A DNA stretch of 64,000 nt from Actinomycetota bacterium (GCA_023489235.1 JAMDDE010000001.1:14072-78071), one strand, 5' to 3'; shown: positions 8,470-57,080, counted from the stretch's first letter. Notes: a model not told the origin generated them from the letters alone. A program made the numbers and translations.

Positions 8470-8476
8470 CAGGACG

Positions 8477-9929: not shown

Positions 9930-11537
9930 ATGACCGGGAACGGAGGAGAAGGCCAACTAGCCATGGATACCGTGGAAAGGAATTCCAACACTTACGACGA
10001 GGATGGGGTGGGTGCCAATGGAGCTGTGGGAGGTGGAAGAGCTTCGAGTGCACCTCTGCTAGGTTCATCATCTGAGCCAACCATCTTGGAGCTGTCCAGG
10101 GTTGGGAGACGGGCATGGTCGCTTCCTGAAACCAACATACCTGAATACCCTCTATCGGATCTGCTTCCTCCCGAGCATTTACGCGATAACCCACTTCCAC
10201 TGGTGGAGTTGTCCGAGAGGGACGTAGTAGCGCATTTCACTCGGTTAGCTCACCGACAGTACAGCATCGACCTCGGAGCATACCCTCTTGGCTCGTGCAC
10301 GATGAAATACAATCCTAAAGTGACGGACGAGATATCTTCTCTTGCCGGTCTTTCCCAAGTTCATCCTGCTGCTTCCGAGAGCATCTCACAAGGATGGCTG
10401 CAACTGCTCGTCGAGCTCGAAGAGGCTTTGTGCGAGATCACCGGGATGCATGCTGCCACGCTTCAACCTCCAGCTGGTGCTGCTGGTGAGCTATGCGGGC
10501 TGCTCCTCATGCGCGCGTGGCATGCCTCTAGAGGGGAGGACAGCACTCGACGCGTTATCGTGATACCCGACTCTGCTCATGGCACTAATCCTGCATCAGT
10601 GAGCATGGCCGGGTTCGAAGTTGCCACTGTTTCCTCCGGCAAAGATGGGTTGGTGGATGAAACCGAGCTCGACTCGGTGCTAAACGAGAATCTGGCTGGG
10701 ATGATGCTTACCAATCCCAATACGTTGGGCTTGTTCGAATCCAACATAGTGCATATCTCCCAGGCTGTTCATGAGGCCGGAGGACTAATGTACTACGACG
10801 GTGCCAACATGAATGCCATCATGGGGATAGCTACCCCTGCTGACATGGGATTCGATATCGTTCACATGAACATGCACAAGACATTCGCCACTCCTCATGG
10901 TGGGGGTGGCCCAGGTGCTGGCCCGGTAGCTGTTACAGAAGGGCTTGCTCCTTTCCTGCCTGGCCCACGCCCAGTAAGAAGTAACGATGATGGGGGACAG
11001 AAGTTCCATTGGGAGATGCCTCCTCGATCTATAGGCAGACTGCATAGCTGGTATGGGAATGCTCTAGTCCTAGCAAGAGCGTATGCATACATACGAATGA
11101 ACGGAGGGGAGGGACTACAAAGAGTTGCTCAGTTGGCAGTACTCAATGCCAACTGGCTGCGCAAGCGAATCTCTTCGACATTTGAGGTACCCTACGGTTC
11201 TGCCGCTATGCACGAGTTCGTCGTATCCCTTGCCAACTTTCACAAACTATATGGAATTCATGCCATGGATGTGGCCAAACGCCTCATAGACAAGGGGTTT
11301 CATCCACCTACTGTAGCCTTCCCACTTATCGTGGAGGAAGCACTCATGATCGAACCAACTGAAACAGAGAGCCCGGAGACCTTGGAGGCATTTGCACGGG
11401 CTTTGGAGGATATTGCCGAGGAACTAGCCTCTGTTGGTCCCGAACCGTTGAAGATGGCTCCACACCATGCTCCGGTAGGTCGTGTCGATGAAGCCCGTGC
11501 AGCACGTAATCCGGTCCTTACCTGGGACATGGAATGA
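9930..11537 (+). CDS. gcvPB: Glycine dehydrogenase (decarboxylating) subunit 2
   Basis: PLP-lysine region HMNMHKTFATPHGGGGPG and GcvPB-like sequence throughout. The start is uncertain because the ORF has an unusually long Gly/Ser-rich N-terminal extension. Confidence 0.9.
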   Translation: MTGNGGEGQLAMDTVERNSNTYDEDGVGANGAVGGGRASSAPLLGSSSEPTILELSRVGRRAWSLPETNIPEYPLSDLLPPEHLRDNPLPLVELSERDVVAHFTRLAHRQYSIDLGAYPLGSCTMKYNPKVTDEISSLAGLSQVHPAASESISQGWLQLLVELEEALCEITGMHAATLQPPAGAAGELCGLLLMRAWHASRGEDSTRRVIVIPDSAHGTNPASVSMAGFEVATVSSGKDGLVDETELDSVLNENLAGMMLTNPNTLGLFESNIVHISQAVHEAGGLMYYDGANMNAIMGIATPADMGFDIVHMNMHKTFATPHGGGGPGAGPVAVTEGLAPFLPGPRPVRSNDDGGQKFHWEMPPRSIGRLHSWYGNALVLARAYAYIRMNGGEGLQRVAQLAVLNANWLRKRISSTFEVPYGSAAMHEFVVSLANFHKLYGIHAMDVAKRLIDKGFHPPTVAFPLIVEEALMIEPTETESPETLEAFARALEDIAEELASVGPEPLKMAPHHAPVGRVDEARAARNPVLTWDME

Positions 11538-11579
11538 CCTGACTGGTCAGTGAATAAACGGCCTCGATTTCATGAAACC

Positions 11580-12131
11580 TCATGGGGTCCGGTTCTGATC
11601 AGGTAGTGCATCCACTACCACAGTAGAAGCAGCGTAGTCATGCCAGGCCAATCGTTTGGCATCGAACAACGGAGAGAAGGCATCGAGAATCAGTGGAACA
11701 AGGAAAAGCCAGTAAGCTACCAAAATGACCAAGTAGCGTATAACTGCCTTGTGCAATAGAACTCTGCCGCCAGTCCTGCGATCACGCACTTGGATGCCGA
11801 CCAATCGCTTGCCCAAGGTCTGACCTGAGTCTGAAGCCGTCAAGAGAGCAAAGTACCCGAGGAAGACCACGATGAACACTACGCCCAACACCCCTTCAGC
11901 GGCGGGTGAGAGCGGAGGCACTCCGGCGTTGGTACGAGCAAATGAATGAGCTGGTGATGTCGTCCTGACTACATGGTTTGTAAGTACTATCAAGTCAATT
12001 ATGAAGCACAGGATCGACACAATGACCATGTCAACTATGAAAGCTAGGAATCGTCGCCACCAACTTACAGGAGATACCACATAGTCAAAGCTTTCATAGG
12101 GTCTAGCTACATTGGGCATTGCAGTTGCCAT
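11580..12131 (-). CDS. RDD-family membrane protein
   Basis: WWRRFLAFIVDMVIVSI-type N-terminal segment, three or more TM helices and conserved R/D positions, consistent with the RDD family. Confidence 0.7.
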   Translation of the reverse strand: MATAMPNVARPYESFDYVVSPVSWWRRFLAFIVDMVIVSILCFIIDLIVLTNHVVRTTSPAHSFARTNAGVPPLSPAAEGVLGVVFIVVFLGYFALLTASDSGQTLGKRLVGIQVRDRRTGGRVLLHKAVIRYLVILVAYWLFLVPLILDAFSPLFDAKRLAWHDYAASTVVVDALPDQNRTP

Positions 12132-12425
12132 TGTACATACAGGAAAGATTAGCTATCTCGACACCGCTCGAGGACCTGTAAACGAGGACCTGCAAAACTC
12201 GAGGAAAGCCCCCTCGGAACCCTCTACCCTTTTACTTGACATAACGGATATTATCGGCGCAACTCAAGAAGCTCTTCACGCTGCTCTCGAAGCACATCCA
12301 AAGCATATCCCCGAAGTGGACTGTTCAATATCCCCGAACCTGGATCGCCAAACCTACTGGACATCAAACCTATTAGCACCCATGCAGTCTACGAACCCAC
12401 GAAGCGAACCGTCTTAGCTCAAGTG

Positions 12426-14063
12426 TTACGGTGCGGGTTTGGCACCAAGCGTCACAGTAACGGTCTTGTGTATTATTCCACGGTATATGCCAATGCTTAC
12501 CCGGTTCCCTGGCTGTTGATTGGCTAAATCAGCCACCAAGGAACTAGCCGAGGTGACTGGTTTGCCGTTGAAGGAGACGATGATATCACCAACCTCCAAC
12601 CCTGCTCGTGATGCTGGAGTGCCAGGCAGTACATCTACAATTACCGCTCCATGATTTGGCATGAAACCATACTGCTGACGTAGCTGGGGGGTCAAGGTGA
12701 CGATATCGACACCTATGTAGGCATTGCTTTGATGTACGCCGCCTCTCAAGAGCTGAGGAAGTAGGCTCTTTATGCGATCAACTGGGATAGCAAAGCCAAT
12801 ATTCTGCGCAGGAGCATTGCCCGCGCTACTGCCTGCGACTGCGGTATTCATGCCAATTACCTGTCCCGCGCTGTTGACCAATGGTCCCCCGGAGTTGCCG
12901 GAGTTAATTGCAGCATCCGTTTGGAGCATATCCGTCAAGGTCTCTGTTTGTCCGGTGACGGGATCAGAGGCCTGTACTGTGCGACCCATAGCTGAGATGA
13001 TTCCCTGGGTTACCGTCAATCCGCCAGGAAGTCCTAGAGCATTGCCTATGGCCACAACGGCATCGCCAACCTGAACGGTGGAGGAATTGCCCAAAGTGAC
13101 AGTGGGTAGATTGGAAACACCTTTGATCTTGAGCAAGGCAATGTCGTCAGCAGGATCAGTGCCTATCAAAGTAGCAGGCATGGAATGAGTGTGGCCCATC
13201 AAGGTGACCGATATAGAGGTAGCTCCTGCTATGACGTGATTGTTGGTTACCACCTCGCCAGATGGACTGATGATCATACCCGTTCCCTCGTCCTCCACTA
13301 CCGAACCATTGGTGGAGGAACCTCCGAATGGAAATATGTTGAACGGAAAATTATTTGGTGCAATCGTCGAGGACGACTGTGAAATGGCTTTTATGGAAAC
13401 CACGGCAGGCAAGACCTTATGGATTATGGAGGGAATAGATGCACTTTCGGTAAGCATGGCCGGACCAGAACTCCCACCGGTAACCTCTACCACCGTGTTG
13501 GACTTTCCGCTGGCAACCTCCTTGGAAACCCCAAAGCTCACTGCAGCGCCAACTAGAGCCGCAATTAATGCCACTACCACCAACGAGCGAAATGTCCTCT
13601 GTGCCGGCCTCGCTCTACCTCCGCCCCACTGCCCCCCTCCGGAGGAGCTGGCACCTCCCTCACCCGGTGGTATCGGTGGTATAGGCGCTCCTGGACCATA
13701 GTTGCCATGAGTTACATGGGGTGCTTCCGCAGAAGGCCCTGACTCGGCAGAGTAAGAAGGGCTGAAAGGAGCATTAATGCTACCAGTTATTGGTACATAG
13801 TAGCCTGAGGGCGACTCCTCCTCTACCCTTCCTGGAGAAGTAGGTTCCTCTGGCTGCATTGGACCCTCTTGTGAGCTGGCCCCTATTTTGCTCGGCTCAC
13901 TTGGTTGATTCGTACCTTCTTGTTGATTCGTACCTTCTCCTACAAAGGGAATTGGTTTGGTCGGTTGATCTTCACCTTGCCCTATTGGAGAGGTGAAGCT
14001 GCTGGAACCACTGGTTTCATCTCTGTCATCTCTGTGATTTTCGAACTCGTTATCAATTCCCAT
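12426..14063 (-). CDS. htrA: HtrA/DegP-family trypsin-like serine protease with PDZ domain
   Basis: Disordered Pro/Gly-rich N-terminus and one TM helix. Catalytic triad contexts are TNNHV, DIALLK and GNSGGPL, followed by a C-terminal PDZ-like region. Confidence 0.9.
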   Translation of the reverse strand: MGIDNEFENHRDDRDETSGSSSFTSPIGQGEDQPTKPIPFVGEGTNQQEGTNQPSEPSKIGASSQEGPMQPEEPTSPGRVEEESPSGYYVPITGSINAPFSPSYSAESGPSAEAPHVTHGNYGPGAPIPPIPPGEGGASSSGGGQWGGGRARPAQRTFRSLVVVALIAALVGAAVSFGVSKEVASGKSNTVVEVTGGSSGPAMLTESASIPSIIHKVLPAVVSIKAISQSSSTIAPNNFPFNIFPFGGSSTNGSVVEDEGTGMIISPSGEVVTNNHVIAGATSISVTLMGHTHSMPATLIGTDPADDIALLKIKGVSNLPTVTLGNSSTVQVGDAVVAIGNALGLPGGLTVTQGIISAMGRTVQASDPVTGQTETLTDMLQTDAAINSGNSGGPLVNSAGQVIGMNTAVAGSSAGNAPAQNIGFAIPVDRIKSLLPQLLRGGVHQSNAYIGVDIVTLTPQLRQQYGFMPNHGAVIVDVLPGTPASRAGLEVGDIIVSFNGKPVTSASSLVADLANQQPGNRVSIGIYRGIIHKTVTVTLGAKPAP

Positions 14064-14358
14064 GACGACTTCCCTCTATTCGACCTTAACTGAGGAACTC
14101 CCCTCACGAAGCTTCAGCCTTGTCAACTATCCTTCCAAGTATTTATTAATACCCTCTCAATCTAAGAGGATGTTTAATGTTTCCCAAGAATGCCTTAGAA
14201 ATATTGGACTACAACACCCTGCCAGTTGCACAAGGCAGTATTCCCTCTTTTGAAAAGTTTAGCGTTCCTAGCTATCCTCAGAACTTCGGTTGGTTAATAT
14301 ACCTGCAGGGCCAGGATGTTCGTATGCTGTCTGTTCAGGCTGTAAGTTAAAGTTTGTA

Positions 14359-15645
14359 ATGAGTTACCGGATCGACATAGAGCTTACTAGCGCGCGCGAT
14401 GATGGCATGTGGACATGGCGAGCGGCTGGGGCACGCCAACCTAAGGGTCTTCTTGACGCGCGTCTCTTATACGAGGGTGCTGGGGTAGGAGATGTCGTCA
14501 AGGCAGAGGTGGAGTCCGGCTTGGACGGTATTGAGGTGATAACCGTACTGCCACCGAAACCCAAACGCGACGAACCCGAGAAAATAATCTTGCTCAGCCC
14601 GAAGCGAGATGGGGTATCGCGCTCCAAATCTCGAGATACCTCTTACAGGGAGGAGGGTGGAACTTCAAGCAAGGTTCTCGAACACTCCAAACCGGAAGCA
14701 ACCTCCCCACCCCGTAGAGGCGACTCCAAGGGTCCTCGCAAGGATCGCCTGGCAGCAAGGGGAAAGTCACGCCCGAAAGTTCATGCAGAGGAATCTACAA
14801 CGACGGCTCCCACTGACGAGGTTGCCGGATCAGAGGATACTCAGAGTGTGCAGTCAACCAGTACAGCAACTCGCCGTCAGCCGCGACGGGTTGTTCCTGG
14901 TCGTCGCCACCGTAAAGAACTTCTGAACAAATTACCGGTTGAACAACGACCAATAGCTGAGCAGTTGCTAAGAGGTGGAATACCAGCAGTCAGACAAGCT
15001 ATTGAGCAACAGAACGAAGCACTACGCAAAGAAGGTAGACCGGAGATCTCTCCAGAGCCTTTGCTGGCCATGGCAGAAACCCTTTGGCCCCAGGTCAACT
15101 CTGCTACCTGGCTTGATCGAGCTGAAGCAGTGCTGCGAGATCCTTCATCAGTTGGCATGAGAGATCTGCGAGCTATAGTAGCTAGCGCGGGAACCGTCAT
15201 CCTGAACGAAACAGGGAGAAAGCTCGCCTCAGAGCTTCGCTCCATGCTGGAGGAGAGAGTTTCCCAACGTAGGCAGAGGTGGCTCGAGGATATCTCCCAT
15301 GATCTAGAGGAAGGGGCAGTGCTACGCGCCCTGAAACGTTCTTCCAGACCTCCTGATGGAGGAGCTCGTTTCCCAGCAGAGCTGGCCTTGAGATTGGCAG
15401 AGGCAGCCGGTCAGGCAATGAATGAAACTACTCCTGCTCCAGTTTGGCGCGAGCTTCTCGAGGCTGTCTTGACCTCACCTGTCCGGCGAACCGTCAAACC
15501 GGTCGGACTACCCGTAGATGCGGATCAAGATCTCAAAGTAGCTGCTCGCGGAGCCTCTGGCCAGATTCCGGCCCTTGCTTCTTTGTTAGGGATTGCCATG
15601 CCTCCCCCACCTCATCCTCCCAAGATATCCAGAACCTCGAAATAA
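14359..15645 (+). CDS. Conserved hypothetical protein (small N-terminal domain, basic disordered centre, helical C-terminal domain)
   Basis: Long ORF with window-typical composition. I prefer the ATG at 14359 (MSYRIDIELTS...) to the track start at 14290. I recognise no family. Confidence 0.55.
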   Translation: MSYRIDIELTSARDDGMWTWRAAGARQPKGLLDARLLYEGAGVGDVVKAEVESGLDGIEVITVLPPKPKRDEPEKIILLSPKRDGVSRSKSRDTSYREEGGTSSKVLEHSKPEATSPPRRGDSKGPRKDRLAARGKSRPKVHAEESTTTAPTDEVAGSEDTQSVQSTSTATRRQPRRVVPGRRHRKELLNKLPVEQRPIAEQLLRGGIPAVRQAIEQQNEALRKEGRPEISPEPLLAMAETLWPQVNSATWLDRAEAVLRDPSSVGMRDLRAIVASAGTVILNETGRKLASELRSMLEERVSQRRQRWLEDISHDLEEGAVLRALKRSSRPPDGGARFPAELALRLAEAAGQAMNETTPAPVWRELLEAVLTSPVRRTVKPVGLPVDADQDLKVAARGASGQIPALASLLGIAMPPPPHPPKISRTSK

Positions 15646-15674
15646 TTAAATAATTATTAAAGATAATTAGGGAG

Positions 15675-16109
15675 TCAAGATAGGCCGTCGTACAAGCGTA
15701 CAGATTCCTCGTGCTTGAGTACGGTATCGTTGAGAAAGTCCATCAACCCATCGGTCATGTCTGGATACGGAAGTGCATTCAACTCAACCCACTTCAGATC
15801 TGAAGCATCATCAGCTGCAATGGCCTGTTCAGTAATGGGCGCATCCACATTGAAATCAAATATTGCAAAGTTGTGCCCCTCTCCTCTGCGCTCGACAAAG
15901 CCCACCAGGGAGCCGCACCGAACATTCAAGCCGGTCTCTTCGGCTATCTCACGCTCCAACGCCCTTTGCAAGCTCTCTCCTGGTTTGACCTTTCCACCCG
16001 GTAGGGACCACCTGCCCTTTTGAGGCTCATGTCCTCTCTGAACAAGAAGAATGTGCCCTTGTCGTATTACGACTCCCCCAACCGCTATCTCGAAGCAATC
16101 AATGCTCAT
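15675..16109 (-). CDS. NUDIX hydrolase
   Basis: Nudix box GGKVKPGESLQRALEREIAEETGL. Confidence 0.85.
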   Translation of the reverse strand: MSIDCFEIAVGGVVIRQGHILLVQRGHEPQKGRWSLPGGKVKPGESLQRALEREIAEETGLNVRCGSLVGFVERRGEGHNFAIFDFNVDAPITEQAIAADDASDLKWVELNALPYPDMTDGLMDFLNDTVLKHEESVRLYDGLS

Positions 16110-46209: not shown

Positions 46210-47232
46210 TCATTTCCGTTCTGGCGAGAGTGGGCCTCTCCCTGCGCCTGTTCGGGTTATCGCCTCCCCTATCGCATCGAGATCTTCAATGTCCAGAGTC
46301 ACCGTACCTCCAGGCAACCACCCATCCACCTGCTCGGGACTACGCGCTCCAACTATCGCGCCAGTCACTCCTGGCCATGCTAGAACCCAGGCTATTGCTA
46401 TAGCTGCCACTGTGGTCTCGTGTTTTCTAGCTAGGGGGACGAGAGCATCTCGTAATGCCAAATTTGCCGATAACCCTGGCTCCGTGAAGTTACGGTCCCT
46501 CCTCCGCCAATCGTCCTCCGCCATTGCCGCAACCCGTTGGCGGCTGAATGAATCGGTCAACAATCCTGACTGCATCGGACTGTAGCAGATCACCCCAGTG
46601 GAGTGATCTCTACACCAAGGTATTTGCGATCCGCCAACCGAACGCTCGATCAAGGAAAAGGGAGGCTGCAGGGAATCCACATGATGAATGGCCTCACAGC
46701 GTTCCAGTAGCCCGACATCGAAGTTCGATACCCCACCAGCTCGTACTTTGCCCTGTTCGATCAGCTCCACCATGACCTCCCAGGAGTCTTCCACTGGAGT
46801 ACCGGTCTCATCTGGCCAATGGAACTGATACAAGTCAATTCTCTCTACGCCTAGGCGCCGTAGCGAGTTGTCGCACTCCTCGCGAATACGCTCAGGACGC
46901 AAGTCCCGAAGAGGGGGAAGCATACGGTTAGAGCTGTTCCAGTTCAAGCCACATTTCGTAAAAATATAGGGTCGGTCAGGCTCAGGGATTGCCCGTACCG
47001 TTCGTCCTACGACCTCCTCGGAGTGTCCCAGCCCATAGACTGCAGCAGTGTCGATCCAGTTGATCCCCGCATCAAGAGCATGACGAATGGCATACTCCGA
47101 TGCCCGATCGTCCTGGGGTCCCCAGGAAAAGGCCCATCCCCCACCTCCCATTGCCCAGGAGCCTATCCCTACGACGGTTATGTCCATGCCCGACTTGCCT
47201 AATGACCTCTTGGGAAGCTGAATCTCTGCCAT
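46210..47232 (-). CDS. Aldo/keto reductase
   Basis: 340 aa with AKR pattern (LGKSGMDITVVGIGSWAMGG, INWIDTAAVYGLGHSEEVVG). Confidence 0.88.
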   Translation of the reverse strand: MAEIQLPKRSLGKSGMDITVVGIGSWAMGGGGWAFSWGPQDDRASEYAIRHALDAGINWIDTAAVYGLGHSEEVVGRTVRAIPEPDRPYIFTKCGLNWNSSNRMLPPLRDLRPERIREECDNSLRRLGVERIDLYQFHWPDETGTPVEDSWEVMVELIEQGKVRAGGVSNFDVGLLERCEAIHHVDSLQPPFSLIERSVGGSQIPWCRDHSTGVICYSPMQSGLLTDSFSRQRVAAMAEDDWRRRDRNFTEPGLSANLALRDALVPLARKHETTVAAIAIAWVLAWPGVTGAIVGARSPEQVDGWLPGGTVTLDIEDLDAIGEAITRTGAGRGPLSPERK

Positions 47233-47345
47233 GAGTCCAAGTCTACTAACCTGACCGCAAGCGGAGTTCCGAATAAGGCTGCTCGCTCGATGATCAAGTC
47301 CCCGATGTTGCGAACCGGCTAGTCACAACTCTCTAGGTTCAACGC

Positions 47346-48155
47346 TTAAACATTTGTTCCCTTGATCGAGTCTTGCAAGTTAGAGTCGTGCAACCCTCGT
47401 GCCGTACTGAACTCCTTGGCCATAATCTGAGAGAGCAGACCTCCATCGGTGCCAACAGTAATGAGTCGAAAACCCATCTCTGCGTAGCGTGCTGCCCACA
47501 CCCCGCTACTGCATTGAATACCAGGTATCTTGCCTTCCTCGTTGCATATGGACCTAACTCGTTCAGCCACGGAAAGCAACGCGTCGTCACCTAGCTCCCC
47601 CGGTATCCTTCCCAAGTTGATGGCCAGATCCCAAGGTCCTATGTAAACCCCATCGATCGACTTCGTCCGGCATATCTCCTCGAGGTGATCGACCCCCGTC
47701 TTTGTCTCGATCATGACAAAACAGAGGGCTTGCTCCAAATCTCTGGGGTCATCGCTTCCAAATACGGAAACTGCTCCTGAAGGACCGTAGGAGCGATGCC
47801 CGTTCGGGGGATAACGACATGCTGCCGCTGCCCTGTTAGCCTCTTCAGCTGACTCGATGCCAGGTACTATCACCCCGACGGCGCCTAGATCCAAACTACG
47901 ACCTATTTCCAGCTCGTTGTTGGCACCTACTCTGACCAATACCCCTATTGATTCAGCGTATCTTGATGTAGCTATTGCAAATATAGTTTCCTCACTATGA
48001 GCCAACCCGTGTTGCATATCGATGCATATGTAGTCCACCCCAGGGGTTCGAGAAATCGAGTCGGCCAACGACACACTGCCTGAGGTGAGCCATACTCCAA
48101 AGACAGTCTCTCCCTCTCTGACGCGAGATAAAAAACTACCGTTATTAGTGGTCAT
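47346..48155 (-). CDS. HpcH/HpaI-family (class II, pyruvate-type) aldolase
   Basis: 269 aa. VDYICIDMQHG and overall similarity to 2-keto-3-deoxy-acid aldolases (HpaI/RhmA-like), from memory. Confidence 0.78.
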   Translation of the reverse strand: MTTNNGSFLSRVREGETVFGVWLTSGSVSLADSISRTPGVDYICIDMQHGLAHSEETIFAIATSRYAESIGVLVRVGANNELEIGRSLDLGAVGVIVPGIESAEEANRAAAACRYPPNGHRSYGPSGAVSVFGSDDPRDLEQALCFVMIETKTGVDHLEEICRTKSIDGVYIGPWDLAINLGRIPGELGDDALLSVAERVRSICNEEGKIPGIQCSSGVWAARYAEMGFRLITVGTDGGLLSQIMAKEFSTARGLHDSNLQDSIKGTNV

Positions 48156-48242
48156 ATACTACCATCCTTTATTTGTAGAATTGTTCACCTGTCCATAGCC
48201 TACTTGTCTAATTAGACTCTCCCTGGGTCTCGTCCGGACGCT

Positions 48243-49340
48243 TCATTGCCAACCGTTAGCAACTGAACTATGATGCATAGATACTAGCCACTCTTGCTCC
48301 TCGACAAAGCTTTGAGAACCTCCATCGGTAGAAGGAAGAGCATGCTCCCCCTGCAGCCAGGCCAGCTTGATCACTACCCTGGAGTGCTGATATCCAACTC
48401 CTAGATCCCCACGCGAAGTGATCACTATCCAAGGGTATCCGTACTCGCCAGTACCATACGCTAGGTCGCCCCTGAGCTCCCTGGGCCAACTGAGGGCACC
48501 ATCAAGAGAACGAGCTACGCGAAGTATCTCGCGACCACTGCAGAGTTGACCGGGGCCGAAGCGAATCACCCCGGAACGTAGAGGGTTGTAAGCCATGACT
48601 ATCTCACCTGAGCCAAGGGAGGCAACGGCTATGCGGGAGTTCGGATTGGGGATATCTGTGGATAGCGCTTGCTCCCAGGTTCTTCCACGATCAGTTGACT
48701 TCGACTTGAACAAGTACCCTGACCTACTGCGCAGGAAGCCGAGAAGCTCACCGTGCCATTCCACGATAGCTGGCTGAATCAGCCAGCTATCGGAGGAGAT
48801 GACACCGGATAGAACCGTTGGCCCTGCTTCCATGTTGCCAACGGAGAATATTGCAAAACGTCCAATCCCTGCTCGTTCATGGTAAAGGGGAAGGATCAGC
48901 TCGTTCCAGGACGTGGTCAAAGCGGCGGTTCCAACCATCCAACCCGGAGGCAGGTCTAGAACGTGTCGCTCAGACCAGCTAAGACCATTGTCATCGGAGA
49001 CCAGGGTCCTTATACGGCTCTTTTCCCAATTGGTTCCAGATCCCGTGACAAAGAACAGCCAGAGCTTGCCACCATCCTCTACTGGAACCGAGTTGCCTTG
49101 AAAGACATCATCCTCCAAGACGAGAGGCTCTATGTTCCAATGTTGATCAGCAAAGCCGTGCGGTAGTAGCTCGCCTGAACTAGGGAACGGTCTCCATGCA
49201 TGCCAGAGCGCAGTCCGAGGAGCGCATTCGTAGTCGCCACCGAAGAAGAAGCAGTGTAGCCGATCCTGATGCTGAATGAACGAGGGAGCGTTCAGCATCA
49301 GGGAGACCTGCGAAGGATAGTTAATTGTTTCGACGATCAT
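48243..49340 (-). CDS. BNR/Asp-box repeat (sialidase-fold) protein with no signal peptide
   Basis: Three Asp-box motifs (SDDNGLSWSE, STDRGRTWEQ, SLDGALSWP). The N-terminus lacks a hydrophobic leader. Confidence 0.75.
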   Translation of the reverse strand: MIVETINYPSQVSLMLNAPSFIQHQDRLHCFFFGGDYECAPRTALWHAWRPFPSSGELLPHGFADQHWNIEPLVLEDDVFQGNSVPVEDGGKLWLFFVTGSGTNWEKSRIRTLVSDDNGLSWSERHVLDLPPGWMVGTAALTTSWNELILPLYHERAGIGRFAIFSVGNMEAGPTVLSGVISSDSWLIQPAIVEWHGELLGFLRSRSGYLFKSKSTDRGRTWEQALSTDIPNPNSRIAVASLGSGEIVMAYNPLRSGVIRFGPGQLCSGREILRVARSLDGALSWPRELRGDLAYGTGEYGYPWIVITSRGDLGVGYQHSRVVIKLAWLQGEHALPSTDGGSQSFVEEQEWLVSMHHSSVANGWQ

Positions 49341-49392
49341 GTAATATCTAATACCATAGTATAAGGAGAATCAGTATAAAGAGAATCCATTC

Positions 49393-50268
49393 CTAGCCTT
49401 TTAGAGCACCGCCTTCCAATGCTTTGACGAAGCGCTTCTGCACCAAGAGGTATACAACCATCGGTACCACAGAAACCAAGCTAAGTATTGCGAACAATTG
49501 TCCCGGCTCGGCCAGGAATGGCCCTTCATAGTACAGGGGAGCTAAGGGCATGGTTTCCTTGCTGAGGTTGGTCATGATCACAAGTGCCAAGTAGAACTCA
49601 TTCCACGAGAACAAGAACTGCCATACGGCGACAACAAACAGTGCAGGAATGATCATTGGGACTATGACCCTGGTCAATACGCTCAGCCAACTTGCGCCGT
49701 CCAATCTGGCTGCTTCTTCCAGCTCGGTGGGGAAACTATCCAGAGCTCCTTTTATTATCAAAATGGCAAAGGCAATACCAATCGCAGTGTAAGGACCGAT
49801 CAATCCCCAATATGTATTGAGTCCACCAATATTCTTCAAGAGCAATACGATAGGAACTAGTACGGACGCCAAGGGAATAAATAAAGCTGTAGAAATAATT
49901 AAAAATAATACACGACCACCAATGATATGAAGTCTAGAAATTGCAAAACTAGCTAACAATGCAAGGATAATAGTCAGGGTCACGGTACTGAGGGCGACAA
50001 TTGTGCTGTTAATAAAAAAATGAGGTAAATCAGGGTTCTTCAAAACTGAAGTATAATTAGATAAAGTGGAGCCGCTGAATACTATTAGAGATGGATCAAA
50101 TGCAGTTACAGCATTACGAAAAGATATATCAATCATGTATATAGTAGGAGATATGCTAAGTATTACAGCAATAATCAAAACGAGATGTGCCCCAATACGA
50201 CTAAGCCCATGACTTCTTGTAACCGCGGGAAGTTTGTCTGACTTTGCTTTGAAGATGTGCCTAACCAT
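49393..50268 (-). CDS. Carbohydrate ABC transporter permease (second)
   Basis: Six TM helices and EAA loop EEAARLDGASWLSVLTRVIVP. Confidence 0.88.
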   Translation of the reverse strand: MVRHIFKAKSDKLPAVTRSHGLSRIGAHLVLIIAVILSISPTIYMIDISFRNAVTAFDPSLIVFSGSTLSNYTSVLKNPDLPHFFINSTIVALSTVTLTIILALLASFAISRLHIIGGRVLFLIISTALFIPLASVLVPIVLLLKNIGGLNTYWGLIGPYTAIGIAFAILIIKGALDSFPTELEEAARLDGASWLSVLTRVIVPMIIPALFVVAVWQFLFSWNEFYLALVIMTNLSKETMPLAPLYYEGPFLAEPGQLFAILSLVSVVPMVVYLLVQKRFVKALEGGALKG

Positions 50269-50274
50269 ATAATT

Positions 50275-51144
50275 TTACTCCGCAGTTCCCGTAGAGATAG
50301 TAAAACGACCTTTAGCCAATACAAATACAAAGCCTACTAAGATGAAGGATAACCCAAACAATAATGTTGCAAGCGATGCAGATATCGATACTCTATTGTC
50401 GACAAAGGCAAGTTTATAAACATAGCTTCCCATAACCTGGCTAGAGTTACCTGGTCCACCATTAGTAGCAATATATACAATTGCGAACTGTTGTAATGCT
50501 TGGATAATTGCAAAGATAGTTAGTGTGTATGTCATCGGACGTACCATAGGAATTATTAGTTGCGTCCACAAGCGCCTGCCTGAGGCACCATCAATAGCAG
50601 CAGCATCTATTATTCCACGATCTATCTGGGAAATTGCTACTGAGTACAAGAGCACAAACCATCCAAGCCACTGCCATACGTTTACTGCAATTAATGCATA
50701 GGTAACTGTATCAGGATTACTAAGTAAAGCAGGAAAATGCGTCCCTAGCCCAATGGCACGTACTAGCCCATAAACTGCCCCATAATCTGGTGCATATAGA
50801 GTAGTAAACACAAGAGCGATAACTGTAGGAGTAACTACCATTGGCAGAAAAAGTATAGCTCTATAGAATGCTCGCCCTCGCACAATGTAAAACTCAATCA
50901 ACATTGCTAGTATGAAACCAATAACTATTTCAAATATTCCTGAAAAAACTACCCATCTGAGCGTATTTGCAAATGAACTTTCAAATGCTGGACGAGCAAA
51001 TAATGCACTGTAATTGGCAAATATTGATTTGGAATTACTGAAGCTACGAATAATGTTGTATAGAATTGGATAAAGCATAAATAGGAGAAATAACCCCAAT
51101 GCTGGAACAGCGTAAATCCAGCCAATCCTATGTGGTCTATCCAT
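50275..51144 (-). CDS. Carbohydrate ABC transporter permease (first)
   Basis: Six TM helices and EAA-type loop DAAAIDGASGRRLWTQLIIP. Confidence 0.88.
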   Translation of the reverse strand: MDRPHRIGWIYAVPALGLFLLFMLYPILYNIIRSFSNSKSIFANYSALFARPAFESSFANTLRWVVFSGIFEIVIGFILAMLIEFYIVRGRAFYRAILFLPMVVTPTVIALVFTTLYAPDYGAVYGLVRAIGLGTHFPALLSNPDTVTYALIAVNVWQWLGWFVLLYSVAISQIDRGIIDAAAIDGASGRRLWTQLIIPMVRPMTYTLTIFAIIQALQQFAIVYIATNGGPGNSSQVMGSYVYKLAFVDNRVSISASLATLLFGLSFILVGFVFVLAKGRFTISTGTAE

Positions 51145-51191
51145 ACTCCGAGCTCACCTGCCTAAATAGGTCTTTGAATGCTTCGAGCTGT

Positions 51192-51258
51192 ACGCAGCTG
51201 CTCCTCGAGTAGGACAGAGGCTGACCGCCTTTCTTGTCCTCCCGAGTAACAGCTGCGT
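51192..51258. promoter_or_regulatory. Long imperfect stem-loop between the binding-protein and permease genes
   Basis: Hand-paired: acgcagctg (51192-51200) with cagctgcgt (51250-51258); ctcgag with cccgag (5 of 6 pairs); aggacag with ttgtcct; and an apical aggc/gcct stem. Confidence 0.5.
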
Positions 51259-51298
51259 CATTAGCATAATACTATATTATTAGTTTAAGTAGCTAATC

Positions 51299-52621
51299 TC
51301 AGGAGTTGGAGGCAGCTACTTTGGCTACTGCAGCCATAGCGGCAGAAGAAGACTCCTTCCCGGTCGCTATGTCCTGCAAATTCTGCACCAAGGCGTTGTA
51401 CACGGCTGTACTGCCAATGGTATGGGGATAGGCCTTGGTAACATCCTGGCTGAGCGAGTTGAACAAGCTCATCACATTGGCGGGGAAGGAAACCGTTGGT
51501 TTGATTCCTTCAAAAGCAGGCAGGTCGTTAAGAGTATTGACTGCCTGGGTCTCGCCAACTCCACTGACAAAGCTCTTGAGCACTGCCTCGGTAGCGGCAA
51601 GTTGCTGAGGAGACTTGTCTGCGTTCTTGGTTATGCCCCACCCAAAGTCAACTCCTCCGAGAATTGGGCTTGGTGAACCACCACTGGTAATTGCTGGGAA
51701 ATTGAAATAACCAAAGTCCATCTGCTTGGCAAGCGGAGGAGCACCTGGAAGTTTGACCTCCTGCAGCCACCAGGAGCCAAGGGACATCATCCCTACCCGA
51801 CCAGCCGCGAACAAGTCTGCTCCAGTTGGATATTGCAACGCGCTCATGGCTCCAGATTGGAACACTTGCTGGGAAAGTTCTTTCCAGACATGGGCTGCTT
51901 CGATCATCCCTGGTTGAGTCCAAGTATTGCCGCCTGTCTCGGCTGCAAGCAGGCCTTGTAAGTCCGTTTGAGCAGCAATTTGCATGTATACCCATTCATC
52001 GAACAACCCCGTACCACCTCCCTGGAAGAAGGGAATATACCCAGCCGCGGAGATGGTATGGGCATCGCTGATCAGTTGAGAGAGCGTCTTGGGGGGTGTT
52101 AAATGCAGCTTGGCGAATATGGATTTGTTGTACCAGATGCCAATGGTCTCCGCTTCCTGCGGAATGATGTAGGTATTCGTGTTGCCTGGAGGATTTCCGA
52201 AGAGAGCTTCCTTGAGCAACGCTGGAGGGAAGTCAGACTTCCAGTTGGAACCCCACAACTTTGCTGCAATTGGGTTGAGTGGCAGAAGATCTGATCTGTA
52301 CTCTTGCGTTTTTGCACCAGGGGATAGGCCAATCAAATCTGGCAACGTACCACTTGCGGCCGCAGCTGCAAGTGAAGTGTAGAAGGCTGTATGGGGTTCA
52401 ATCTTGTAACTTATGGTGATGCCAGGATGCCTAGCCTCGAATGATGAGGCCATGAGCTTCATCGTAGGAGATACTGGCGTCCAGGACAGCACGCTCACGG
52501 TTGTGGTCTTGCTGGACGAAGGAACCTTCGTCGTCTTGCTCGGCGATGAGCTACATGCCGCAGCGACCACGGCAAGCACTACCAAGAGCGCACTCAACCG
52601 TATCTTTCCGCTAATTCGCAT
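51299..52621 (-). CDS. Carbohydrate ABC transporter substrate-binding lipoprotein
   Basis: Signal peptide with lipobox (VAAAC|SSS), 440 aa family-1 SBP-like. AAGGAG RBS 6 nt upstream. Confidence 0.88.
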   Translation of the reverse strand: MRISGKIRLSALLVVLAVVAAACSSSPSKTTKVPSSSKTTTVSVLSWTPVSPTMKLMASSFEARHPGITISYKIEPHTAFYTSLAAAAASGTLPDLIGLSPGAKTQEYRSDLLPLNPIAAKLWGSNWKSDFPPALLKEALFGNPPGNTNTYIIPQEAETIGIWYNKSIFAKLHLTPPKTLSQLISDAHTISAAGYIPFFQGGGTGLFDEWVYMQIAAQTDLQGLLAAETGGNTWTQPGMIEAAHVWKELSQQVFQSGAMSALQYPTGADLFAAGRVGMMSLGSWWLQEVKLPGAPPLAKQMDFGYFNFPAITSGGSPSPILGGVDFGWGITKNADKSPQQLAATEAVLKSFVSGVGETQAVNTLNDLPAFEGIKPTVSFPANVMSLFNSLSQDVTKAYPHTIGSTAVYNALVQNLQDIATGKESSSAAMAAVAKVAASNS

Positions 52622-52911
52622 TGCTACTCCTTATTTTTATTTTGTTTTATTTTGCTATTCATAGATAATTTCTTATTTGGAAATATCTAAATGATAGAGG
52701 TACTGTCTTGCATTTATGTATTTATATATTCCACACCTCCTTTAAATAAATTAAGGCACTTACGAAATCATCTTTAATATAAAGAGTTCTTTTAGAATAA
52801 ATCATCTTTTATCTATACTATCATATTATCTTATTTTCAAAATTAATAAATTATGCAAACATATATCGAATAATTGGTAATTAAATGCAGACGATGTTTA
52901 CTGCATACTAT

Positions 52912-54420
52912 CTAGAAAGAGGGCGTACTATCTCTTCCTATTTCTCTTCCTATTTCAGCTAATGTATGGTTGACATCTACAGTGACTGCATACAGTAATT
53001 TGTACAAAGAAAACAATTGATCATACCTCCTAGTTGTAGAAGTATCTGGCATGATGGTCTTAGATATTCTTGTCCAATCTGTCGAAAGATCGAACTTTTC
53101 CGTAGCCAATCCAGCTAAGTATGCATCCCCGTATGCAGCTCCTATCCCTACCGTAGGCAGGTGCTGCATCTGTCCAGTGACATCAGAGACTATCTGTGGC
53201 CATAGATCTCCGCTCGTACCGCCACCAACGGCAACCAACCTGGAAATCTTGGCTCCTGCATTGGTAAAGGCCTCCAAATTGTTTCGTACCCCGTAAGCAG
53301 TCCCTTCGAGAAGTGCCCGAGTCAACGCTCCCCTGCTATGTCCCAAGGTCAATCCAGCTATGACTCCTCTGGCCTCCGGGTCGAACAGAGGGGTACGTTC
53401 TCCGGAGAAGTAAGGAAGTACCAACAAACCATCCGAACCAGGAGGTACAGCACTGGCCTCCTGCAGCAGCTCGTTTATGTCGGTGGCGGTTAATTCCTCG
53501 AACCAACTGATGATTGCCCCGGAGGTGGCCATGCCGCCAGCCAATGTCCATGTTCCGGGGAACGTACCGACGGTATTCCACAAATGTCTGTCGCGATAGG
53601 GTCTATCGACCACATCTACGAAGAACATAGTCGTGCCGTACATAACCATTGCATCGCCTATGTTCCTCACCCCAGCCCCAAGGGCCTCACTCCATGCGTC
53701 TATGGTTCCGACTGCAACAGGAGTGCCTGACGGAATTCCTGTCTCCTGCGATACCGAATCCAGAACAGTACCAGCTATTTCCTGAGGCCACAGCAGAGCG
53801 GGGTATTCAAGGTGTTTACCTACCTCTTCCGCCCAGTCCTCTGCCCAGGTAGTCCTCTCTATGTCGTAGAGAGGGTCGCATTGACTCGCCGAAGAGTGAT
53901 CCAGAACATATTCGCCAGTCAAGCGCCACACTATGTAGCTATTGGCCATGAAGAATCGTCTGACTCGGCTCCAAGTACTCGGCTCATGTCTTTGCACCCA
54001 AAGAATCTTGGGACCAACCGCCTGAGTGGTTAACGGAGATCCGCAACGAGCAAGAATTGCGTCTTCACCATAGCGTTCATTGAGTTCTTTTATCTCCTCG
54101 GTAGAGCGAGTATCAACGCCGTACAGTATTGCAGGACGCAATGGAACGCCTGCTTCATCGGCAACGAGCAAACAGGGACCCAGACCACTAATGCATATTC
54201 CAGCAAGCGAACTAGGATTTCTATCTCTTAAAAGCTTATTTGACAATGCCTTGAAGTCAGCCCACCAAATTTCGTCTGCATCTTGTTCGAACCACCCTGG
54301 TTGAGGCATAGATACGCTATGTGTCCGAACGGCAGAATCGATGACCTCGCCTTCTGAGGTAACCAAAACAGCCTTCGTACTAGATGTTCCTATATCAATA
54401 CCTAGCAACATACAGCTCAC
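52912..54420 (-). CDS. FGGY-family carbohydrate kinase
   Basis: GIDIGTSSTKAV N-terminal motif and 502 aa of FGGY-like sequence. Starts immediately after the isomerase stop. Confidence 0.88.
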   Translation of the reverse strand: MSCMLLGIDIGTSSTKAVLVTSEGEVIDSAVRTHSVSMPQPGWFEQDADEIWWADFKALSNKLLRDRNPSSLAGICISGLGPCLLVADEAGVPLRPAILYGVDTRSTEEIKELNERYGEDAILARCGSPLTTQAVGPKILWVQRHEPSTWSRVRRFFMANSYIVWRLTGEYVLDHSSASQCDPLYDIERTTWAEDWAEEVGKHLEYPALLWPQEIAGTVLDSVSQETGIPSGTPVAVGTIDAWSEALGAGVRNIGDAMVMYGTTMFFVDVVDRPYRDRHLWNTVGTFPGTWTLAGGMATSGAIISWFEELTATDINELLQEASAVPPGSDGLLVLPYFSGERTPLFDPEARGVIAGLTLGHSRGALTRALLEGTAYGVRNNLEAFTNAGAKISRLVAVGGGTSGDLWPQIVSDVTGQMQHLPTVGIGAAYGDAYLAGLATEKFDLSTDWTRISKTIMPDTSTTRRYDQLFSLYKLLYAVTVDVNHTLAEIGREIGRDSTPSF

Positions 54421-55839
54421 CTAGTCACGTGAGTCGAAATTATCTACTTCGATCCCCAAGAATTTACAAGCAATCTTCATGGATATCGAGACATCTCCTG
54501 GCACTGCGTGAATGTGATTTGCTCCAAATCTTGATAAAAATATCTCTGGAGAAGTATTCATTCTTGTGAAAGCATGAGGCCAGGTATATGTGCTCTGTTT
54601 CATCAAATTCTCGTTAGTTGCTTCATCGAATTCAAGGAATTCTCCGGAAACGATCTGCAGACGATACCTACCTTCTATCCTGCTCAATCTTGCCAGAGTC
54701 ACCTCTCCAGGAGCCGCTAGAAAATGAACCGAAGCTCCACCCGCAGGGAAGTAGAAATCTGCGGGGTATAGATGCACCTTCCTCAAATTCTCCGCAGGAT
54801 CATCGCTTCGTGAAGCAAACCAAGTTGCATGTTGTCCGCTATTCACTAAGTCCCATAGATCCTTATCTGCAAAGTAATGCCTGACATCGGCAAATAGAAC
54901 GGGACCGCCTGTGACCCCTTTGAACAACTGCATGGTCAAGGCACCGTCCATGTCGTCCTCGGTGGCACATACGAATGGCTCTTTAGGTCCGTCCCAATCA
55001 TACGGATCGTTCAGGAAGGCCTCCAAGATATCCGTAGTGGCGAAGTATGTAGTCAGTTCTGGCTGACCTTTGATGCCACAAAAGGATAGGTTTGCTTCCT
55101 CGATAATGTCACGCATGGCATAATAAGAGCGTATTTGCCGTTCAAGCGTACCCTCGGTCAGAGCCTTGCCATCATAGTGGACAGTAGCGCAGTGTTTTTC
55201 CAACCACTGACGCGCAGACCTGACCAATGAAGCTTCTACTAGTTCCGAACGCCTGACGATCTCCCATTGGTCTATCTCCTCGACATCTATGCCGAACTTG
55301 GACATCCATTCATCGGTACGGCCCACCGCAGTGTACATACCCATTGACCTACCGCCTATCCGCCCAAAAGTTGTTCCTTTGAGGGCGCTTGCAGCATGTG
55401 CCCCAAGACAAATAGCCGAGAGACGTGCACGAACTGCACTGTCATTCATATCGCCCCACAGGCGTTCATGAACCCGTCCCAGCTGATCCAGCCCTCCAGC
55501 TGCTGCCAACATACCTACCATGCCCGGGTACTTGGGATCGATGGTGGACAACAGCAACAACGGGGTAGAGGTCATGCTGGCTGCAATCATTGAAAAATTG
55601 GGGAAAGCCCAAACTGGATAGTTGAAAATAGTGAGATCTGGATAGCTAGAAGCTACTAGTTGGGCCTCACTAGCCGCCAATGCATTGGAGGTGATTGCGG
55701 AGCGCGCTCTGATCACGGTATGACCCATACCCTCGAGAGCACGTACGACACTCTCTTCATTGCTCTGGACGAAGTCACCGACGTCCCTGTTGACAAAGTC
55801 TCGACCATCGCTAAATGTCAGCAGCCCGACGAGCGCCAT
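54421..55839 (-). CDS. L-fucose/L-arabinose isomerase-family sugar isomerase
   Basis: 472 aa. The N-terminal LLTFSDGRDFV pattern and overall resemblance to the FucI-like family are from memory. It is the first gene of the operon divergent from lacI. Confidence 0.72.
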   Translation of the reverse strand: MALVGLLTFSDGRDFVNRDVGDFVQSNEESVVRALEGMGHTVIRARSAITSNALAASEAQLVASSYPDLTIFNYPVWAFPNFSMIAASMTSTPLLLLSTIDPKYPGMVGMLAAAGGLDQLGRVHERLWGDMNDSAVRARLSAICLGAHAASALKGTTFGRIGGRSMGMYTAVGRTDEWMSKFGIDVEEIDQWEIVRRSELVEASLVRSARQWLEKHCATVHYDGKALTEGTLERQIRSYYAMRDIIEEANLSFCGIKGQPELTTYFATTDILEAFLNDPYDWDGPKEPFVCATEDDMDGALTMQLFKGVTGGPVLFADVRHYFADKDLWDLVNSGQHATWFASRSDDPAENLRKVHLYPADFYFPAGGASVHFLAAPGEVTLARLSRIEGRYRLQIVSGEFLEFDEATNENLMKQSTYTWPHAFTRMNTSPEIFLSRFGANHIHAVPGDVSISMKIACKFLGIEVDNFDSRD

Positions 55840-55934
55840 CGCCCCTCCTTTGGCCTTGAAGGATAGTTCCTTCGTCCTGTTGTCTAGTGTTCGCTCTTAC
55901 GACCTCAGTACTTCACTACTGTGATCACTCAGTT

Positions 55935-55962
55935 GTAACACTAATGTTATGTAATCGTTTAC
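55935..55962. promoter_or_regulatory. Candidate LacI-family operator(s) in the divergent promoter region
   Basis: TAACA-ctaa-TGTTA dyad (55935-55948) is followed directly by tGTAATCGTTTACc (55949-55962). That is 5 of 6 palindromic pairs around a central CG, like the TGNAANCGNTTNCA consensus. Confidence 0.4.
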
Positions 55963-56069
55963 CTTTCAGTTTAGTTACGAGATCGAACATTGTCAACGCT
56001 CATCTACTATGGAATCGTTGAGCTATACAACCATTTCGAGCTGAACGCCACTGAAAGGAGCCCCTATAG

Positions 56070-57080
56070 ATGACCACGATCACCGATGTAGCTAGAGCTG
56101 CTGGCGTATCCACTGCTACGGTATCGCGGGTCATCAACAACACCGGCAAGGTGAACGAGTTATTGGCAGAACGCGTCCGTGGAGTCATTGACGAACTCGG
56201 GTATCAGCCCAGTCGACTCGCTCGTAGTCTCAGAACCAGGAGAAGTCGTACCTGGGCGGTGATCATCTCGGATATTCGTAATCCTTTCTTCACCGATATG
56301 ATCAGGGGAATAGAGGACGTTGCCTACAAGAACAACTACGCCGTCGTATTGTGCAATGCCGAGGAGGACGACTCAAAGGTTGCCTCTTACATCCACTTGG
56401 CTCTCTCTGAACACATGTCTGGCCTGGTGGTCACCCCAACTTACACTCATCGCATAGACCTAAGCCCTGTACTTGAAGAAGAAGTCCCACTCGTGATGGT
56501 CGACCGCAAAGTCGAAGGATACGATTTCGACAGCGTACTGGTGGACAACGTCTGGGGCGCAGAGGAGGCAGTAGAGCACCTTATCGAGGGGGGATACCGA
56601 CGGATTGCAACTATCGGAGGACCCGTGGAGACAACTACTGGATACGAGCGACTGCTAGGGTATAAAAAAGCTCTTCAGGTACATGGGATCGATATCGAAG
56701 AGCAATTTGTTCGAATAAGTACATTTCGCGAAAAAGGTGGCTACGAGGAGATGAGGTTCTTGATCAACCTGGAGCAACGACCCGATGCTGTTTTCGTAGC
56801 CAATAATTTGATGACGATTGGCGCGCTCAGGGCACTTCACGAAGCAAATGTAGCAGTTCCTGATGAGATAGCCATCATTGGCTTCGACGACATGTCGTGG
56901 TCCTCGCTGCTCCGACCCCCGCTCACTGCAGTAGCGCAGCCCACCTATGAGCTGGGAGCTGAGACCGCTAAACTACTCCTCTCACGAATCGATGGTTACA
57001 CTGGTCCCGGTCGTCAAGTGGTGTTGTCGCCCACCCTCATGGTTAGGGAGAGCTCCAAACCAAAGCTGAAAAGCCGGTAA
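56070..57080 (+). CDS. LacI-family transcriptional regulator
   Basis: N-terminal HTH TITDVARAAGVSTATVSRVIN plus a periplasmic-binding-protein-like effector domain. Confidence 0.92.
   Translation: MTTITDVARAAGVSTATVSRVINNTGKVNELLAERVRGVIDELGYQPSRLARSLRTRRSRTWAVIISDIRNPFFTDMIRGIEDVAYKNNYAVVLCNAEEDDSKVASYIHLALSEHMSGLVVTPTYTHRIDLSPVLEEEVPLVMVDRKVEGYDFDSVLVDNVWGAEEAVEHLIEGGYRRIATIGGPVETTTGYERLLGYKKALQVHGIDIEEQFVRISTFREKGGYEEMRFLINLEQRPDAVFVANNLMTIGALRALHEANVAVPDEIAIIGFDDMSWSSLLRPPLTAVAQPTYELGAETAKLLLSRIDGYTGPGRQVVLSPTLMVRESSKPKLKSR

Follow-up and report, generated by a model that had tools for sequence, protein, structure and literature searches.

What sugar is consumed through a locus that joins a FucI-like isomerase and an FGGY kinase to a cytoplasmic protein of the sialidase fold, an HpcH-family aldolase and an aldo/keto reductase (AKR)? 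We address this question for positions 46210-57080 of a 64,000-nucleotide stretch of DNA from an Actinomycetota bacterium (GCA_023489235.1 JAMDDE010000001.1:14072-78071, our G000:C58:14072-78071; this whole stretch is hereafter the window), whose genome comprises 2.17 Mb in 80 contigs and is 93% complete. Reasoning from sequence comparison, we lean modestly towards a reading in which the locus would import glycosides of Kdo (3-deoxy-D-manno-octulosonate, an eight-carbon acid sugar found in the lipopolysaccharide (LPS) inner core and some capsules of nearly all Gram-negative bacteria), split Kdo into pyruvate and D-arabinose, and thereby feed the pentose-phosphate pathway. The nine open reading frames (ORFs) and the noncoding elements discussed below are as follows, with protein families assigned by Pfam.

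46210-47232, minus strand: AKR, 340 aa (Aldo_ket_red, 216 bits)
47346-48155, minus strand: aldolase, 269 aa (HpcH_HpaI, PF03328, 85.5 bits against a cut-off of 25)
48243-49340, minus strand: sialidase-fold protein, 365 aa (BNR_2, 128.7 bits against a cut-off of 31.4)
49393-50268, minus strand: permease, 291 aa (BPD_transp_1)
50275-51144, minus strand: permease, 289 aa (BPD_transp_1)
51299-52621, minus strand: binding protein, a CUT1-type solute-binding lipoprotein, 440 aa (SBP_bac_1 and SBP_bac_8)
52622-52911, no strand: spacer at the junction of the kinase and binding-protein genes, 290 bp, 23% GC by sequence composition
52912-54420, minus strand: FGGY kinase, 502 aa (FGGY_N and FGGY_C)
54421-55839, minus strand: isomerase, 472 aa (Fucose_iso_N1, N2 and C)
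55950-55963, no strand: candidate LacI operator TGTAATCGTTTACC, an imperfect palindrome with a central CG
56070-57080, plus strand: LacI-family regulator, divergent from the catabolic genes, 336 aa (LacI, 67 bits; Peripla_BP_3, 132 bits)

A preliminary description of the window had placed all nine genes at these positions and in these families, and ORF and Pfam analyses uphold every call, just as measurement confirms the 290-bp AT-rich gap and the 113-bp gap between the aldolase and AKR genes that it reported. It had further called the binding protein a lipoprotein, in keeping with a signal peptide and lipobox cysteine at the N-terminus; had seen no signal peptide on the BNR_2 protein, which indeed has no leader; and had found no ATPase gene in the locus, correctly, a MalK/MsiK-type ATPase being encoded in an unlinked part of the genome. 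Its impression of non-canonical parts was sound, in that no enzyme of the locus attains an NCBIfam equivalog cut-off and the BNR_2 protein matches no NCBIfam model at all, and its view of the genes as one LacI-linked sugar locus holds.

The evidence that carries our reading is the company that these genes keep elsewhere. Identity figures for relatives, here and throughout, compare them against the window proteins, all of which served as tblastn queries. A scan of species-representative genomes with the single BNR_2 protein gave no match, and one with an alignment of its close clade recovered two loci in Bacillota metagenome-assembled genomes (MAGs), L003 and L004; a search of the Bacillota class to which these belong yielded L023 and L025. 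Gene orders were established by tblastn and family scans:

L003: binding protein, permease, permease, DHDPS-family aldolase, BNR_2, ATPase, ribulokinase, FucI
L023 and L025: LacI, BNR_2, binding protein, permease, permease, FucI, ribulokinase, DHDPS-family aldolase
L004: binding protein, permease, permease, BNR_2, ATPase, followed by the contig end

A metagenome scan produced one close relative only, L005/L006, which carries the whole window locus in the same order, AKR included, at 74-81% nucleotide identity. Transporter, BNR_2 protein, pyruvate aldolase, FucI-type isomerase and FGGY pentulose kinase are found together in the window, L005/L006, L003, L023 and L025. The preliminary description had called for a study of gene-neighbourhood conservation; once run, this showed isomerase, kinase, BNR_2 protein and pyruvate aldolase recurring together, with the aldolase family swapped in the Bacillota loci. 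In place of HpcH, L003, L023 and L025 carry a class I aldolase of the dihydrodipicolinate synthase (DHDPS)/NanA family, on which NanA models score 29-42 bits. The isomerases and kinases of the Bacillota loci belong to other subfamilies as well, being 23-26% identical to those of the window: the former are true FucI (960-1037 bits, cut-off 775) and the latter AraB-type ribulokinases (583-730 bits, cut-off 428). Neither a fuculokinase nor FucA was found at these loci in a search limited to the queried gene families. The binding protein is 57% identical in L003, 52% in L004, 51% in L023 and 52% in L025 and the permeases are 43-59% identical, with the BNR_2 proteins lower than the transporter proteins, at 27-37%. 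That function is kept while the protein family is swapped is strong evidence that the activities joined to this transporter form one pathway.

What that pathway degrades can be approached from its two ends. In the E. coli routes for D-arabinose, FucI classically serves as the isomerase, and its pairing with a ribulokinase fits the conversion of D-arabinose to D-ribulose and on to D-ribulose 5-phosphate that constitutes the E. coli B route. At the other end, the only common denominator of the HpcH and DHDPS/NanA families is the pyruvate-dependent cleavage of 2-keto-3-deoxy acids. Because the aldolases are swapped in this way and the product of a pentulose kinase needs no aldolase, the aldolase most likely acts upstream of the isomerase, on the acid freed by the sialidase-fold protein. 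Sialidase- and KDNase-type enzymes act on glycosides of 3-deoxy-2-ulosonic acids, and Kdo is, to our knowledge, the known ulosonic acid that by retro-aldol logic would yield pyruvate and D-arabinose. A sialidase fold, a pyruvate aldolase and enzymes of D-arabinose metabolism therefore point, in combination, to Kdo as the ulosonic acid.

We accordingly envisage that the binding lipoprotein and its two permeases, powered by an unlinked MsiK-like ATPase, would import a small Kdo-containing glycoside or oligosaccharide, from which the leaderless BNR_2 protein would liberate Kdo within the cytoplasm. HpcH, the class II aldolase, would then cleave Kdo to pyruvate and D-arabinose, the short FucI-family isomerase would convert D-arabinose to D-ribulose, and the XylB-like FGGY kinase would phosphorylate the latter to D-ribulose 5-phosphate for entry into the pentose-phosphate pathway. 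The divergent LacI protein would use the palindrome at 55950-55963 to control, at a minimum, the promoter of the isomerase and kinase genes. No Kdo-8-phosphate synthase scored above its cut-off in the five carrier genomes, and Kdo would therefore be scavenged from outside. A ulosonic acid explains exactly the two puzzles that the preliminary description had raised: why a transporter operon should contain a sialidase-fold protein with no leader, and why an HpcH aldolase should accompany an isomerase and a kinase. The cleavage step would correspond to EC 4.1.2.23, the conversion of Kdo to pyruvate and D-arabinose (PMC10619137, PMC12199768).

How well do the individual proteins suit these roles? 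The window aldolase has its fold and catalytic residues in common with YfaU/RhmA, GarL and HpaI of E. coli, its best PDB and NCBIfam matches, and by sequence-profile alignment, the method of residue mapping used throughout, it has the same His, Arg, Glu and Asp as YfaU at the catalytic and metal positions, which places it in class II. It scores 97-116 bits against the GarL, HpaI and RhmA NCBIfam models (cut-offs 369-441), and unlike the genes for those enzymes it has no rhamnonate dehydratase, glucarate dehydratase or hpa genes nearby. Gene context leads us to propose that this protein is a Kdo aldolase.

The isomerase, with 472 aa against about 590 aa, scores 106 bits with the FucI equivalog NF008220 (cut-off 775) and belongs to FucI at the level of the superfamily only, having the three Pfam domains and keeping the Glu, Asp and His that align with the catalytic and Mn residues of FucI. 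The kinase, whose gene directly abuts that of the isomerase (54420/54421), has XylB (TIGR01312) as its best NCBIfam model, at 333 bits against a cut-off of 380. Short isomerases of this kind occur in 12 of 400 sampled genomes of the phylum (ten at 59-66% identity, nine of those in one family) and are typically preceded by a LacI gene; the window's LacI protein is 39-44% identical to its counterparts at the head of such isomerase-kinase modules in other actinobacteria. Where isomerase identity is 59-66%, an orthologue of the kinase (57-59%) follows at three of the seven loci examined. One locus, L050 (G1362:C1:3403400-3423300, about 7700-16000), is ordered LacI, CUT1 binding protein, two permeases, DUF2961 (GH172), isomerase and kinase, with a CUT2-type ABC set (ATPase, permease, Peripla_BP_4) following the kinase; L053 has the same order by tblastn, with an intervening ORF where L050 has DUF2961. 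The glycoside hydrolase (GH) family GH172 includes exo-alpha-D-arabinofuranosidases, and the D-arabinan scheme of Microbacterium arabinogalactanolyticum leads to D-ribulose 5-phosphate (PMC10509167); by analogy, L050 resembles a Microbacterium-type locus for the use of D-arabino-oligosaccharides. Because orthologues of the window pair sit in such GH172/D-arabinan-type loci, we propose that the isomerase may serve as a D-arabinose isomerase and the kinase as a D-ribulokinase (pentulose 5-kinase). Actinobacterial D-arabinan loci (GH183, GH172, GH116) resemble the window locus in combining a CUT1 importer, a leaderless cytoplasmic exo-glycosidase and a D-arabinose isomerase and kinase, the last two 57-66% identical to the window's; in place of GH172, GH183 and GH116, none of which it has, the window locus carries a sialidase-fold protein and a pyruvate aldolase. 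Since glcDEF-like genes adjoin lacI, we also considered an oxidative D-arabinose route of the Dahms type and rejected it, as the locus contains no dehydrogenase, lactonase or dehydratase.

The close clade of the BNR_2 protein is rare, with six clusters at E<1e-30 among 1.84 billion representative proteins. It was not found among 400 other genomes of the same order, one of which (G058) has a distant BNR_2 match in a region (L028) that showed none of the other queried genes. The absence of the clade from these 400 genomes, together with permease genes of 39-43% GC against 51% for the window and 50-56% for neighbouring genes, accords with the accessory character that had been ascribed to the locus. 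Fold prediction from a 27-sequence alignment gave a pLDDT (predicted local distance difference test) of 89.4, as against 38.8 from the single sequence, and the model is a six-bladed beta-propeller. In an exhaustive structural comparison its top matches are GH33 sialidases (1eut/1eur, Z 37.0, root-mean-square deviation 2.2 A over 307 residues), with some twenty GH33 entries at Z 31-37 and the A. fumigatus KDNase at Z 34; Foldseek agrees, with a sialidase match at E 3e-15. Other propellers score lower, including GH93 arabinanase (Z 26.6), BT_1020 (Z 24.9) and viral neuraminidases (Z 20-24). Three Asp-box-like motifs begin at Ser115, Ser215 and Ser278, consistent with the GH33 Asp-box (S-x-D-x-G-x-T-W).

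Alignment to solved sialidases identifies the nucleophile Tyr as Tyr302 and the second and third Arg of the triad that binds the C1 carboxylate as Arg204 and Arg270, all three invariant, and places an invariant Glu38 at the position of the acid/base Asp, a conservative change. The RIP-motif Arg, first of the triad, is replaced by Asn17 in the window protein and by His in most relatives, and Gln189, itself invariant, takes the place of the partner Glu of the nucleophile Tyr in a gapless alignment with NanC, the alignment with Sialidase26 being shifted by two residues. An extra invariant residue, Arg321, lies three residues past the site of the canonical Glu downstream of the Tyr and might complete the carboxylate site. 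The protein is thus a divergent member of the sialidase fold with much but not all of the catalytic apparatus, and we propose that it is an intracellular Kdo-glycoside hydrolase. The same Bacillota class holds six further BNR_2 loci (L020-L022, L024, L026, L027) that have no transporter, aldolase, isomerase or kinase, so that a tie to the pathway does not extend uniformly through the wider BNR_2 family.

Several considerations weigh against the Kdo reading. The arginine triad of GH33 is incomplete, with Asn17 for the first Arg, and the set of nucleophile Tyr, partner Glu and acid/base residue is broken by Gln189, so that the BNR_2 protein may perhaps not be a classical retaining hydrolase, or may be no hydrolase. 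Kdo itself enters as the substrate by deduction from the gene set, and the kinase, an FGGY protein of pentulose type that scores below the equivalog cut-off, has a regiochemistry that we likewise infer from sequence. CUT1 systems are also able to carry monosaccharides, and the AKR is a lineage-specific add-on without an assigned step. Independent lineages are few, comprising that of the window with its close relative L005/L006 and a single Bacillota class that accounts for all four Bacillota loci; an Acidimicrobiales MAG with a BNR_2 protein of 51% and a binding protein of 75% identity, their genes probably linked, may be a third.

These considerations lend themselves to other explanations. 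One that we regard as unlikely, and that survives best, is that a different 2-keto-3-deoxy acid or a modified Kdo (anhydro, unsaturated, methylated or a lactone) is imported as a monosaccharide and converted by the BNR_2 protein in the manner of NanOx or NanM. The invariant Gln189 in place of Glu and the Asn or His in place of the first Arg would then reflect altered chemistry, for which the AKR here and the SDR (short-chain dehydrogenase/reductase) and AKR-like genes upstream in L004 could be of service, and CUT1/SAT-type ABC systems of other bacteria do take up sialic acid derivatives as monosaccharides. Against this, the loci have no oxidoreductase in common, di- and oligosaccharides are the ligands of the solved proteins nearest to the binding protein, and the pairing of FucI with ribulokinase would still indicate a D-arabinose skeleton, that is, a Kdo-type C8 acid.

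We give a rather low probability to the idea that the locus serves D-arabinosides, with the BNR_2 protein as a novel intracellular D-arabinosidase that replaces GH172 or GH116, the isomerase and kinase taking up the D-arabinose so freed, and the pyruvate aldolase put to some other purpose. This would leave unexplained why a pyruvate aldolase, in two non-homologous forms, is present in every complete BNR_2 locus (the window with L005/L006, L003, L023 and L025) and absent from the GH172-type loci examined. The GH93 arabinanase does share the propeller fold, but the model lies much nearer to GH33 (Z 31-37) than to GH93 (Z 26.6); and although a protein without the full Arg triad and Glu would fit a carboxylate-free substrate, two Arg and the Tyr are invariant at sialidase catalytic positions. 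The isomerase-kinase pair is orthologous to modules that stand beside GH172 in a D-arabinan-type locus (PMC10509167), which also favours a D-arabinoside.

Very improbable is the phosphorylative route of the preliminary description, in which a deoxy-sugar glycoside is deglycosylated, isomerised and phosphorylated, HpcH cleaves the ketose phosphate and the AKR reduces the aldehyde: the gene order, with the AKR after the aldolase, fits, and FucI-family isomerases act on L-fucose, but the HpcH protein keeps pyruvate-specific class II residues and gives way elsewhere to a class I enzyme of the DHDPS/NanA type, the kinases are of XylB-like or AraB type and not C1 kinases (the window's scores 83 bits with fuculokinase FucK and 36 with rhamnulokinase RhaB), the AKR is not conserved outside the window's lineage, and the fucose- or rhamnose-like order of isomerase, kinase, aldolase and reductase is not borne out by comparison across genomes.

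If the locus does serve Kdo catabolism, how does it relate to known systems? Sialic-acid (nan) clusters follow the same logic, with a sialidase fold, a pyruvate aldolase, conversion and phosphorylation of the resulting aldose, and a linked repressor and importer. Their aldolase, like that of the Bacillota counterparts, is of the DHDPS/NanA family, whereas that of the window is a class II HpcH protein; they employ NanE and NanK (the N-acetylmannosamine route) where the window has a FucI-type isomerase and a pentulose kinase (the D-arabinose route); and in contrast to nan sialidases the window's sialidase-fold protein is cytoplasmic and without the first Arg and the catalytic Glu. The Kdo hydrolases of Francisella and Helicobacter (KdhAB/KdoH1-KdoH2; PMC3573668) remove Kdo from a glycoconjugate by means of a sialidase-like catalytic part, as does the C-terminal domain of BT1013, from a Bacteroides locus for rhamnogalacturonan II (RG-II) (PMC13501991). 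The window's BNR_2 protein resembles the known Kdo hydrolases at the level of the sialidase-like fold; they differ from it in being envelope or periplasmic enzymes, in acting on pectin or on the LPS of the cell itself, and in having no link to Kdo catabolic genes.

Kdo aldolase activity is known in enterobacteria and in Aureobacterium/Microbacterium, and the enzyme was reportedly purified by Ghalambor and Heath in 1966. The reaction, EC 4.1.2.23, is the one that we propose for the HpcH protein, and no gene is assigned to the activity. A 2007 list of orphan enzymes includes it (PMC1940265), a 2023 paper notes that E. coli has 'no Kdo aldolase' annotated (PMC10619137), and a 2025 paper likewise has it unannotated (PMC12199768). 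Our literature searches found no paper that assigns genes to Kdo catabolism, and the earlier statement that no described pathway has this gene set holds within those searches. We would tentatively suggest, at somewhat short of even confidence, that the locus and its Bacillota counterparts may represent Kdo catabolism at the level of genes, with two non-homologous Kdo aldolases (HpcH and DHDPS-type) and an intracellular subfamily of GH33-like Kdo-glycoside hydrolases without the canonical first Arg and catalytic Glu. If true, this would supply genes for the orphan EC 4.1.2.23, and the locus offers candidates for every step: two unrelated aldolases, a binding protein and a sialidase-fold enzyme with an unusual active site.

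Beyond Gram-negative envelopes, Kdo is found in plant pectin RG-II and in green-algal scales, an occurrence so wide that it ought to be commonly available as a carbon source in dead biomass. Its ketosidic bonds are acid-labile, and we speculate that this lability might make Kdo available in the acidic habitats of those carriers of the binding protein that are acidophilic. At least 50% identity to the binding protein is far commoner than membership of the close BNR clade: 188 proteins match at E<1e-60, and labels among the relatives listed (P0171-P0270) include Alicyclobacillus, Sulfobacillus benefaciens, Acidisphaera, Acetobacteraceae, Rhodospirillales, Ktedonobacteraceae/Ktedonobacterales and Acidimicrobiales MAGs, several of which groups are acidophilic.

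With respect to the import of Kdo glycosides, the permease pair and binding protein form the sole CUT1 set in the 2.17-Mb genome (permease pair at E<1e-15). The binding protein's closest relatives of solved structure have oligosaccharide ligands, which fits glycoside import followed by a cytoplasmic hydrolase. The lack of an ATPase gene in the locus would be explained by a MalK/MsiK-type ATPase, the genome's only one, encoded elsewhere, at G000:C59:4761-5804; it is 48% identical to the L003 ATPase and is probably the missing energising subunit of the locus transporter. Recent mosaic exchange of the transporter segment was considered and ruled out by the even nucleotide identity to L005/L006 (74-81%) across the locus. 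Given this evenness, the protein identity of 94-96% between the transporter and that of L006 reflects constraint, and the low GC of the permease genes is old and conserved and does not mark a recent insertion.

More distant relatives of the binding protein belong to other systems. One of 37-38% identity in G964 (L031) has as its neighbour another FGGY kinase only, and relatives of 40-43% identity on Agrobacterium and Rhizobium plasmids stand beside an ADP-dependent kinase, with SDR genes in the Agrobacterium locus. The latter, L032 (Agrobacterium tumefaciens pAt1D1460, NZ_CP032928.1 383871-402986), is headed by a 43% identical binding protein and comprises a 338-aa hypothetical protein (of no Pfam family, and not BNR), a kinase of the ADP-dependent glucokinase/PFK family, two SDRs and a DeoR regulator; it is a different sugar system.

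The AKR stands apart from the conserved set. Its best NCBIfam model is YdjG, at 184 bits against a cut-off of 550, and it is retained after the aldolase in L005 at 89% identity and absent from L003, L023 and L025 by tblastn and family scans. The suggestion that it provides the aldehyde-reductase step of the pathway did not survive the comparison, as it is kept only in the close relative. On the minus strand of L004, at 225-2566, a weak AKR-like ORF (34% over 139 residues) and an SDR gene lie upstream of the transporter-BNR genes, on the opposite strand from them, a weak hint that a reductase sometimes accompanies the module.

Taken together, the relatives described above make the locus look like a mosaic of an actinobacterial D-arabinose module (LacI, isomerase and kinase), a transporter and sialidase-fold module shared with Bacillota, and the aldolase and AKR. 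E. coli genomes gave no DNA match to it. At the regulatory end, the LacI protein has the helix-turn-helix and effector domains of a LacI/GalR repressor, and a candidate palindrome with a central CG lies near a promoter-like site. That site, the best on the minus strand, has a -35 element TTGACA at 55996 and a -10 element ending at 55968, just upstream of the palindrome, whose sequence TGTAATCGTTTACC has its sole exact copy within the window at 55950-55963; the palindrome may be the LacI operator. The AT-rich spacer between the kinase and binding-protein genes was searched for an operator-like site and none was found. A spacer of about 274 bp is retained in L006, and we infer that the 290-bp spacer marks the junction of two modules of different ancestry. 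On the minus strand just past the kinase stop, at 52880-52905, lies a hairpin (ATGCAG, a 10-nt loop, CTGCAT) followed by a T-rich stretch; it includes GTAAAC, one half of the LacI operator-like palindrome, and could, as its sequence suggests, form a weak terminator or attenuator at the module junction.

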